From NCBI GenBank assembly GCA_964359655.1, contig CAYHVI010000002.1, positions 176-64,175 of the forward strand: DNA of 64,000 nt, in the 5' to 3' direction. The translations under genes were made by a program, and so were the position numbers. Of the stretch, positions 31,013 through 31,195 are shown piece by piece (position 1 is the stretch's first letter; every line of letters starts with the position of its first letter). The stretch is from an uncultured Candidatus Saccharibacteria bacterium (GTDB lineage: Bacteria > Patescibacteriota > Minisyncoccia > Minisyncoccales > UBA10102). The notes beneath the pieces are model-generated. The model was not told the DNA's origin. It did not search any database and saw only the letters and a list, made by a program, of their open reading frames with translations.

Positions 31013-31034
31013 CGACCTCCCAGCTGGGAGGTCG
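31013..31034 (-). terminator. Leader hairpin/terminator, copy 2 of the ACCTCCCAGCTGGGAGGT palindrome
   Basis: CGACCTCCCAGCTGGGAGGTCG followed by TTTCGTTTAT. Lies between the Leu/Val mini-ORF and the 55-aa ORF. Confidence 0.6.
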
Positions 31035-31058
31035 CGTGATATGTTTAAAGTATTTTTC

Positions 31059-31160
31059 TTATCTTACGTATGCATATCGTAAATCTCCCAACCATAGAGG
31101 TTGCACCAAGATCAACATCAAGACCAAAACTTGCTCGGTGAGATTTAAGATTGTTTGCAT
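31059..31160 (-). CDS. Leaderless Leu/Val/Ile-rich mini-ORF (33 aa), candidate leader peptide
   Basis: ATG lies 7 nt after TATAAT. Translation: MQTILNLTEQVLVLMLILVQPLWLGDLRYAYVR, with 9 Leu, 4 Val and 2 Ile. Confidence 0.45.
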   Translation of the reverse strand: MQTILNLTEQVLVLMLILVQPLWLGDLRYAYVR

Positions 31161-31167
31161 TATTGTC

Positions 31168-31195
31168 ATTATACTCAAGCAGAAACCTCTGTCAA
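31168..31195 (-). promoter_or_regulatory. Consensus sigma70-type promoter
   Basis: TTGACA, 16 nt, TATAAT on the minus strand. Confidence 0.65.

Follow-up and report, generated by a model that had tools for sequence, protein, structure and literature searches.

A candidate leaderless transcription attenuator with a Leu/Val-rich mini-ORF in a genomic island of an aquifer Patescibacteria bacterium

In the classical ilv and leu attenuators, a promoter-proximal open reading frame (ORF) with a run of Leu, Val and Ile codons precedes mutually exclusive RNA helices and an intrinsic terminator, and leaders of this kind have been predicted for ilvB genes in Actinobacteria (PMC1262725). In mycobacteria, leaderless polycysteine sensory small ORFs (sORFs), the 'Cys ribulon' of Canestrari et al., act on translation and not on terminators (bioRxiv 10.1101/834739). 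Our literature search turned up no paper that describes leader-peptide attenuation for the candidate phyla radiation (CPR)/Patescibacteria. Here, we analyzed a 64-kb stretch of contig CAYHVI010000002.1 (hereafter the window) from an uncultured bacterium of this group and focused on the unit M1, in which a consensus promoter, a Leu/Val-rich mini-ORF and a terminator hairpin precede the gene for a 55-aa acidic protein (protein A) and a tRNA-like element. We propose, with moderate confidence, that M1 is a leaderless ribosome-mediated transcription attenuator that senses Leu, Val and Ile.

A sequence scan of the window placed all M1 elements on the minus strand (Table 1). An earlier reading of this DNA from its letters and ORF translations (hereafter the sequence-only reading) had described a TTGACA-16-TATAAT promoter with an ATG 7 nt past the -10 element; both are present, and the promoter matches the consensus at 12 of 12 positions. 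The mini-ORF that opens at this ATG has no Shine-Dalgarno (SD) sequence. In particular, Leu, Ile or Val occupies eight of nine consecutive codons (codons 11-19), four of which are UUG. This run was matched in only 4 of 5000 dinucleotide shuffles (p≈0.0008), and a score of 8/9 was reached by two of the 264 ATG-initiated ORFs of 20-45 aa in the window. The bias was also frame-specific, as the other two frames scored 2 and 3. An ATG stood 7-9 nt past the -10 element at six of the 14 near-consensus promoters of the window, where about 0.7 would be expected; in this genome, leaderless initiation thus seems to be genuine. We also observed more perfect promoters with an ATG 9 nt past the -10 element, at 34859-35076 on the plus strand and at 46124 on the minus strand; since these open longer ORFs of 59 and 58 aa, leaderless mRNAs seem common here beside strong SD sites. 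We infer that the mini-ORF is translated and, from the 7-nt distance and the excess of such promoters, that the M1 transcript begins at the start codon.

The terminator proposed in the sequence-only reading was recovered as an intrinsic terminator of the minus strand, with a T-rich tail directly after the palindrome. Its hairpin contains 10 pairs, of which seven are G-C, has a predicted energy of -19.4 kcal/mol and was scored as terminator-like by the scan. Because gene C, upstream of M1, is closed by a terminator of its own, M1 forms a transcription unit apart from it. No promoter-like site was found on the minus strand between 31012 and 30901, and the 55-aa gene should therefore depend on read-through of the M1 terminator. 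The leader can also pair in an alternative way. In the minimum-free-energy (MFE) fold, element 1 was paired with element 2 (1:2 duplex, -15.3 kcal/mol), while the duplex formed by element 2 and the terminator 5' arm (2:3) reached -15.5 to -16.1 kcal/mol. Without element 1, the MFE structure of the nascent RNA as far as the terminator loop was this 2:3 pairing (GGUUGGGAG with CUCCCAGCU), aided by a GAUAUG/CAUAUC helix. We infer that termination at M1 is conditional.

In the proposed mechanism, transcription would start at or beside the first base of the ATG, with a ribosome then loading at the 5' end. With charged tRNA-Leu, tRNA-Val and tRNA-Ile plentiful, the ribosome would reach the stop codon and depart, element 1 (UAAAUCUCACC) would pair with element 2 (GGUUGGGAGAUUU), the palindrome would fold as the 3:4 terminator, and the transcript would end at the T-tail, approximately 155 nt from its start. 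With these tRNAs scarce, the ribosome would stall in the run from GUU to GUG (codons 11-19) and hold element 1 off element 2; the freed element 2 would then capture the terminator 5' arm, and the polymerase would read on into the SD-bearing 55-aa gene and the tRNA-like element.

Most likely, M1 belongs to a set of four such cassettes in a lineage-specific island, the others being M2 (Ile), M3 (Cys) and M4 (Phe/Tyr). The three neighboring units share the layout of M1, which supports the attenuator reading: a consensus promoter leads to an ATG 7-9 nt past the -10 element, which opens a short ORF biased toward one class of amino acid, and a hairpin with a T-tail and a gene with an SD sequence come next. 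In none of the four units does this SD gene have its own promoter-like site. The mini-ORF had been suggested to be a sensory leader, and this idea is plausible because the identical layout recurs four times within 3.8 kb. The codon runs of the sister units, which were frame-specific as well, were compared with 5000 dinucleotide shuffles each. The M2 run, with Ile at six of seven codons, was never reached; the M4 run (FFGYFYFF), with Phe or Tyr at seven of eight, was reached once; and the M3 run, with Cys at four of six, was reached 42 times. The M3 leader contains five Cys in 28 codons, while Cys averages 0.5% in the long genes of the window.

For each unit, the best duplex between the leader and the 5' arm of the terminator was compared with those of 1000 dinucleotide shuffles. 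The 2:3 duplex of M4 (-27.2 kcal/mol; shuffles, -11.9 ± 2.6) and that of M2 (-21.2 kcal/mol; shuffles, -6.7 ± 2.0), in which the antiterminator is formed by AAGCUGGGAGUC..UGCA, were reached by none of the shuffles, and that of M3 (-15.6 kcal/mol; shuffles, -12.1 ± 2.4) was reached by a fraction of 0.07. Each leader was additionally folded with a 30-nt ribosome footprint masked. Unmasked, or with the footprint over its stop codon, M4 adopted the terminator fold, whereas a footprint over the Phe/Tyr codons gave the antiterminator, and M3 likewise switched to the antiterminator with the ribosome on its Cys codons. In silico, M4 is thus a predicted textbook attenuator and the best-supported of the four units. 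The strongest result of this analysis is the four-member array with the canonical M4 before a xenologous DAHP synthase gene, which lies outside the segment singled out by the sequence-only reading.

The sequence-only reading had also reported that the neighboring unit carries an identical 18-nt hairpin core, and this was exact: the core occurs exactly twice in the window, at 31015-31032 in M1 and at 31910-31927 in the M2 terminator, while no copy appeared in 100 shuffles. A dispersal like that of repetitive extragenic palindromic elements was not seen, as only these two copies, both in the same functional position, were found within three mismatches in the 64 kb. Copies of the exact 18-mer were also present in 21 metagenome stretches (approximately 19 of them distinct), which range from 31 to 72% GC. 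Most of these copies were flanked by A-runs and T-runs, and they had nothing else in common with the island. Since the 18-mer is a terminator in approximately 19 unrelated contigs, hairpin identity is weak evidence of shared descent; the 18-mer has arisen repeatedly, and an identical terminator is no proof of common ancestry. The modular duplication that had been suggested from the shared terminator is accordingly weakly evidenced. An alignment of M1 with M2, as proposed in the sequence-only reading, was not significant outside the hairpin (p=0.08), nor was homology of the two modules as wholes. In one of the six tests made, M1 and M3 could be aligned over the region of element 2 and the spacer (p=0.006), and a 42-nt promoter block of M1 was 71% identical to M3 and 62% identical to M4. 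In addition, GGYTGKGAGATTT occurs in both M1 and M3 but is read in different frames, which indicates conservation of the RNA rather than of the peptide. Duplication of the cassette is therefore plausible, with the hairpin not being evidence for it.

One of the metagenome copies, at positions 1789-1950 of contig L046, lies before pheA and aroG-type genes. A consensus-like promoter is followed after 7 nt by the ATG of a leaderless, Tyr/Phe-rich leader (MNILAQQYYFYFFTPKSLGGAVFA) and then by the identical ACCTCCCAGCTGGGAGGT terminator, with UGGGAGG as the antiterminator strand (7 bp). Judged by gene content, the contig belongs to a gammaproteobacterium-like organism, and the locus looks like a genuine phe attenuator. 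It has no sequence similarity to the window beyond the hairpin, and the common hairpin is therefore convergent. On another unrelated contig (L055, 59% GC), two hairpins with the 18-mer lie 248 nt apart at 2634-2899, downstream of a tRNA gene; their near-identical flanks look like a local tandem duplication.

Several results weigh against attenuation at M1. The M1 2:3 duplex is marginal over chance (shuffles, -11.0 ± 2.4 kcal/mol; fraction reaching it, 0.057), and the terminator persisted at equilibrium in all masked folds, unlike in M4 and M3. The regulatory codons sit in the looped segment that separates element 1 from element 2 and not within element 1, and the stop codon is 23 nt beyond element 2. 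No Rfam family matched at its gathering threshold; the best score was that of Phe_leader (RF01859), with 23.2 bits against a gathering threshold of 55 and over the hairpin only, and even at E≤10 there were only weak, hairpin-only matches to this family. The leader peptide matched no Pfam or NCBIfam family. Homologues of the module were found in neither 36 related loci nor 21 metagenome loci, and all recovered copies represent the same strain from one aquifer (99.98-100% identical). Finally, the tie between the cargo and the sensed amino acid holds for M4, with its DAHP synthase, but fails for M1, whose ORFan protein and degenerate tRNA-like element have no known connection with Leu, Val or Ile.

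In classical trp-type attenuators, the 3:4 helix is likewise more stable than the 2:3 helix, and kinetics decide between them. The M1 helix energies fall within the range of classical attenuators. M1 is therefore compatible with attenuation, although it is the weakest of the four units. The amino-acid theme of the island, which includes a TrpR-like repressor, a stand-alone RAM domain and the DAHP synthase, provides additional support, as does the apparent, independent proteobacterial phe attenuator of L046 with the same hairpin. No T-box features were seen in the sequence. Directly shown here are the elements of the sequence, the biased codons, the alternative pairings and the genomic setting. 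The original observation is confirmed; its interpretation as a whole is partly supported.

The most serious alternative is that M1 is a free-standing short gene, with its own strong promoter and a constitutive terminator, that produces a small RNA of approximately 155 nt or the mRNA of a hydrophobic peptide. The 55-aa gene would then be expressed by leakage or from an unrecognized promoter, and the Leu/Val run would reflect a hydrophobic peptide only. We consider this possible but doubtful. Small RNAs typically combine a 5' stem-loop, an A/U-rich linker and a terminator in this order, as M1 does, and its fold z-score was -3.7; the marginal antiterminator, a terminator that wins every masked fold at equilibrium and the orphan downstream genes also agree with it. 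Terminated attenuator RNAs can work in trans, as described for rnTrpL (PMC6614838), and the two readings can therefore coexist. In contrast, the ATG has exactly the +7 position found in M3 and M4, the leaders of which are clearly sensory, and no promoter-like site lies ahead of the SD gene. The similarity between M1 and M3 is frame-shifted, contrary to a conserved peptide, and the hydrophobic stretch spans only approximately 15 residues, with Q and P among them.

It is unlikely that the terminator is made conditional by a protein, such as the adjacent RAM protein C in a TRAP-like role, or by drug-responsive stalling of the erm/cat type. Gene C, a member of a domain family that binds amino acids, is the immediate upstream neighbor, and the leader is highly structured, but a repeated motif for protein binding is absent from the leader, such control would leave the frame-specific codon bias unexplained, and the downstream genes are not resistance genes. 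RAM-only proteins are not known to bind RNA. Slightly less likely still is the absence of any function, with a chance ORF in a 5' untranslated region (UTR) and a leaky terminator left by recombination in a mosaic island. The module is indeed confined to a single lineage and unconserved, and the mosaic island contains a recently acquired GC-rich coding sequence (CDS); however, chance does not readily account for a perfect promoter, a +7 ATG, a codon run at p≈0.001 and ordered 1:2/2:3/3:4 complementarity in combination, or for the repetition of such a combination in four adjacent units. Least probable is a type I toxin or other membrane-active peptide of a mobile island: the peptide is short and hydrophobic with a charged C-terminus, and the island encodes a HicA toxin, but no plus-strand promoter-like site lies opposite M1 and thus no antisense RNA is indicated, the hydrophobic run (~15 residues) falls short of the length of a transmembrane helix, no family was matched, and the layout is common to non-hydrophobic leaders such as the Cys-rich M3.

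Table 1. Coordinates of M1, its sister units and other features of the island in the 64-kb window.
Feature	Coordinates	Strand	Details
M1, whole unit	31195-31002	-	followed by 55-aa protein A and tRNA-like element
M1 promoter	TTGACA 31195-31190; TATAAT 31173-31168	-	16-nt spacer; GGGG just before
M1 leaderless mini-ORF	31059..31160	-	33 codons; ATG 31160, stop 31061-31059; peptide MQTILNLTEQVLVLMLILVQPLWLGDLRYAYVR
M1 candidate regulatory codons 11-19	31104..31130	-	GUU UUG GUC UUG AUG UUG AUC UUG GUG (VLVLMLILV)
M1 element 1 (anti-antiterminator strand)	31134..31151	-	core UAAAUCUCACC; pairs with element 2 in MFE fold
M1 element 2	31076..31094	-	core GGUUGGGAG at 31093-31085; partner, element 1 or terminator 5' arm
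M1 elements 3:4, intrinsic terminator hairpin	31012..31035	-	22-nt palindrome CGACCTCCCAGCTGGGAGGTCG at 31034-31013; loop AGCU
M1 T-rich tail	31002..31011	-	TTTCGTTTAT
Protein A 5' UTR	30902..31001	-	long hairpin 30981-30937; fold z-score -4.8
55-aa acidic ORF (protein A)	30734..30901	-	SD GGAGGAG at 30910-30904
tRNA-like element	30648..30724	-	ARAGORN 'tRNA-Ile(GAU)'; starts 10 nt after 55-aa gene, co-oriented
Terminator closing M1 transcription unit	30611..30634	-	from terminator scan
Fifth unit	30583-30223	-	11/12 promoter; ATG 8 nt past -10; 39-codon ORF without obvious codon run
Gene C, 75-aa stand-alone RAM (Lrp/AsnC ligand-binding) protein	31488-31261	-	Pfam PF01037, E=1.6e-10
M2, whole unit	32085-31907	-	leader MSLRNLIIIIITILMPQKLGVIFLHK
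M2 promoter	TTGACA 32085-80	-	weak -10
M2 ORF	32036-31956	-	MSLRNLIIIIITIL...
M2 terminator	31930-31907	-
73-aa ORFan D	31817-31596	-	next after M2
TrpR-like repressor gene	32920-32609	-	two GTACTAGTAC operators in island
Trp-repressor-operator-type palindromes	32920-32933; 32567-32580		(A)TCGTACTAGTACGA(T)
M3, whole unit	33399-33229	-
M3 promoter	33399-33372	-
M3 leader	33364-33278	-	leaderless; MSYIISSCCGCACLQGPSGCEIFVATFA
M3 terminator	33245-33229	-
Gene after M3	33183-33022	-	53-aa basic protein with four Cys
M4, whole unit	34764-34596	-
M4 promoter	34764-34737	-
M4 leader	34727-34647	-	MGLKQFFGYFYFFTDAVGKILVSKRA
M4 antiterminator arms	34683-34660; 34629-34606	-	24 nt each
M4 terminator	34623-34596	-
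DAHP synthase gene	33467-34486	-	directly after M4
HicA toxin gene	35859-36080		Pfam E=1.9e-17; likely HicB partner upstream

Downstream of M1, both the 55-aa acidic product and the tRNA-like element that had been described before were present. Protein A gave only self-matches among 5.8 billion clusters and in a phmmer search of 1.8 billion representatives and belongs to no Pfam or NCBIfam family; protein D, encoded after M2, was also an ORFan among the 5.8 billion clusters. In the predicted fold of the protein A 5' UTR, the SD sequence pairs with CUCUUUU just past the terminator tail. This structure sits downstream of the M1 terminator and has no link to the leader ORF. In the tRNA-like element, the T-arm is canonical and so is the acceptor stem apart from a mismatched seventh pair, but the D stem has only 3 bp and the anticodon loop GCGAUCC is non-canonical, with C33 and C37 in place of U33 and a purine at 37. 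As U33 and purine 37 are lacking and the score is under the Rfam tRNA threshold, 'tRNA-like' is the right word. A canonical tRNA-Ile lies beside khpA in the related locus L025, but the two sequences are unrelated and orthology was rejected. We found no repeat of the 3' half of the element in the window and hence no att-type duplication. The element might serve as a processing signal or as a decoy, or it might be a pseudogene. The fifth unit contains a strong hairpin (GACCUCUCC-CGCAAA-GGAGAGGUC) that hides the SD sequence of a 47-aa zinc-ribbon gene; as this SD sequence is buried and no T-tail follows, the unit may act as a switch of translation and not of transcription.

Identical copies of this DNA were found only in the 0.1-µm fraction from well H51 of the Hainich aquifer. 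TrmD, KhpA, S16 and RNase III are syntenic with those of Candidatus Wildermuthbacteria and Paceibacterota metagenome-assembled genomes, to which the TrmD protein is 79%, 75% and 66% identical, and the host is a Wildermuthbacteria-like CPR bacterium. The island (30100-39525, approximately 9.5 kb) lies between rpsP and khpA, which adjoin in the related locus L008. A different 4.8-kb insert occupies the same site in L006, which makes it an insertion hotspot. Among 36 genome loci anchored on TrmD, none contained island genes or modules, and the common parts were only khpA, trmD and the flanks; a scan of relatives for similar leaderless units of an sORF and a terminator likewise found none with amino-acid runs. 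A phage origin of the cassette was rejected, as the promoter-leader pattern had no match in viral contigs. The island holds nine of the 14 near-consensus promoters of the window. We also observed a 77-nt repeat at 36812-36888 and 37703-37779 (91% identical) and further repeats in 36094-37779 and 28858-28877, namely, a 27-nt repeat in three copies and the 20-nt motif CCCTGAGCGAAGTCGAAGGG in four copies, one of which adjoins a tRNA-Tyr gene.

One operator palindrome of the island overlaps the -10 element and the start codon of the TrpR-like gene, and the other lies approximately 100 nt upstream of a 107-aa orphan gene (32463-32140). This arrangement suggests autoregulation of TrpR and a small TrpR regulon. 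The DAHP synthase CDS has 62.6% GC, compared with 40% for its leader and approximately 43% for the genome, and it is 88.7% identical at the DNA level to a gene on a non-CPR contig (L066, 62% GC). This similarity runs from 34487, one base before the start codon, to 33480, 13 nt short of the stop codon; beyond these points, the two sequences are unrelated. More remote homologues (approximately 78% aa identity) lie in operons of trpA, chorismate mutase and DAHP synthase genes without a Phe/Tyr leader. Co-transfer of M4 with the DAHP synthase gene was rejected: since the closest homologues lie in other contexts and have no such leader and the DNA similarity is limited to the CDS, the attenuator did not move with the gene. 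From its composition and boundaries, this looks like a very recent transfer of a bare DAHP synthase CDS behind a leader of native GC content.

CPR/Patescibacteria are thought to import most amino acids. We tentatively suggest, as a possibility well short of probable, that this CPR symbiont has a bank of four amino-acid-specific stalling sensors (Phe/Tyr, Cys, Ile and Leu/Val) derived from one duplicating leaderless cassette, with one copy before a freshly acquired GC-rich DAHP synthase gene and the others gating orphan proteins and a tRNA-like RNA. Together, these sensors might form a starvation 'ribulon' that reports host-supplied amino acids, the biosynthesis of the bacterium itself being scant. 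If this is true, reduced genomes monitor tRNA charging directly, and a small cassette can be copied, re-coded for other amino acids and attached to a new foreign gene. It would also offer a starting point for the study of three small orphan proteins and a tRNA-like RNA, since specific starvation signals would govern their expression. A more sober lesson is that identical terminator hairpins are not evidence of common descent.

Compared with known systems, M1 most resembles the E. coli ilvGMEDA, ilvBN and leu leaders and the actinobacterial ilvB leaders, with which it shares a promoter-proximal ORF with a Leu/Val/Ile run and an intrinsic terminator before the putatively regulated gene; its predicted 1:2, 2:3 and 3:4 helices would also be mutually exclusive, as in those leaders. 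It differs from them in being leaderless without an SD sequence, in its CPR host and in the position of the codons between elements 1 and 2; moreover, the cargo of the ilv and leu attenuators consists of biosynthetic enzymes, whereas that of M1 is an orphan acidic protein and a tRNA-like element. The strong M1 promoter would likewise give an abundant terminated leader of approximately 155 nt, as in rnTrpL of Sinorhizobium (PMC6614838). M4 shares the Phe/Tyr logic of the pheL-pheA attenuators (PMC3082878), of which the L046 locus is a metagenome instance. M3, a leaderless Cys-rich sORF, resembles the mycobacterial polycysteine sORFs, and the systems would be alike in their leaderless starts, in codon runs that sense supply by stalling and in their occurrence at several independent loci. 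The mycobacterial cargo is cysteine metabolism, whereas the genes in the island are mostly orphans, and here, a hairpin with a T-tail terminator follows each leader.

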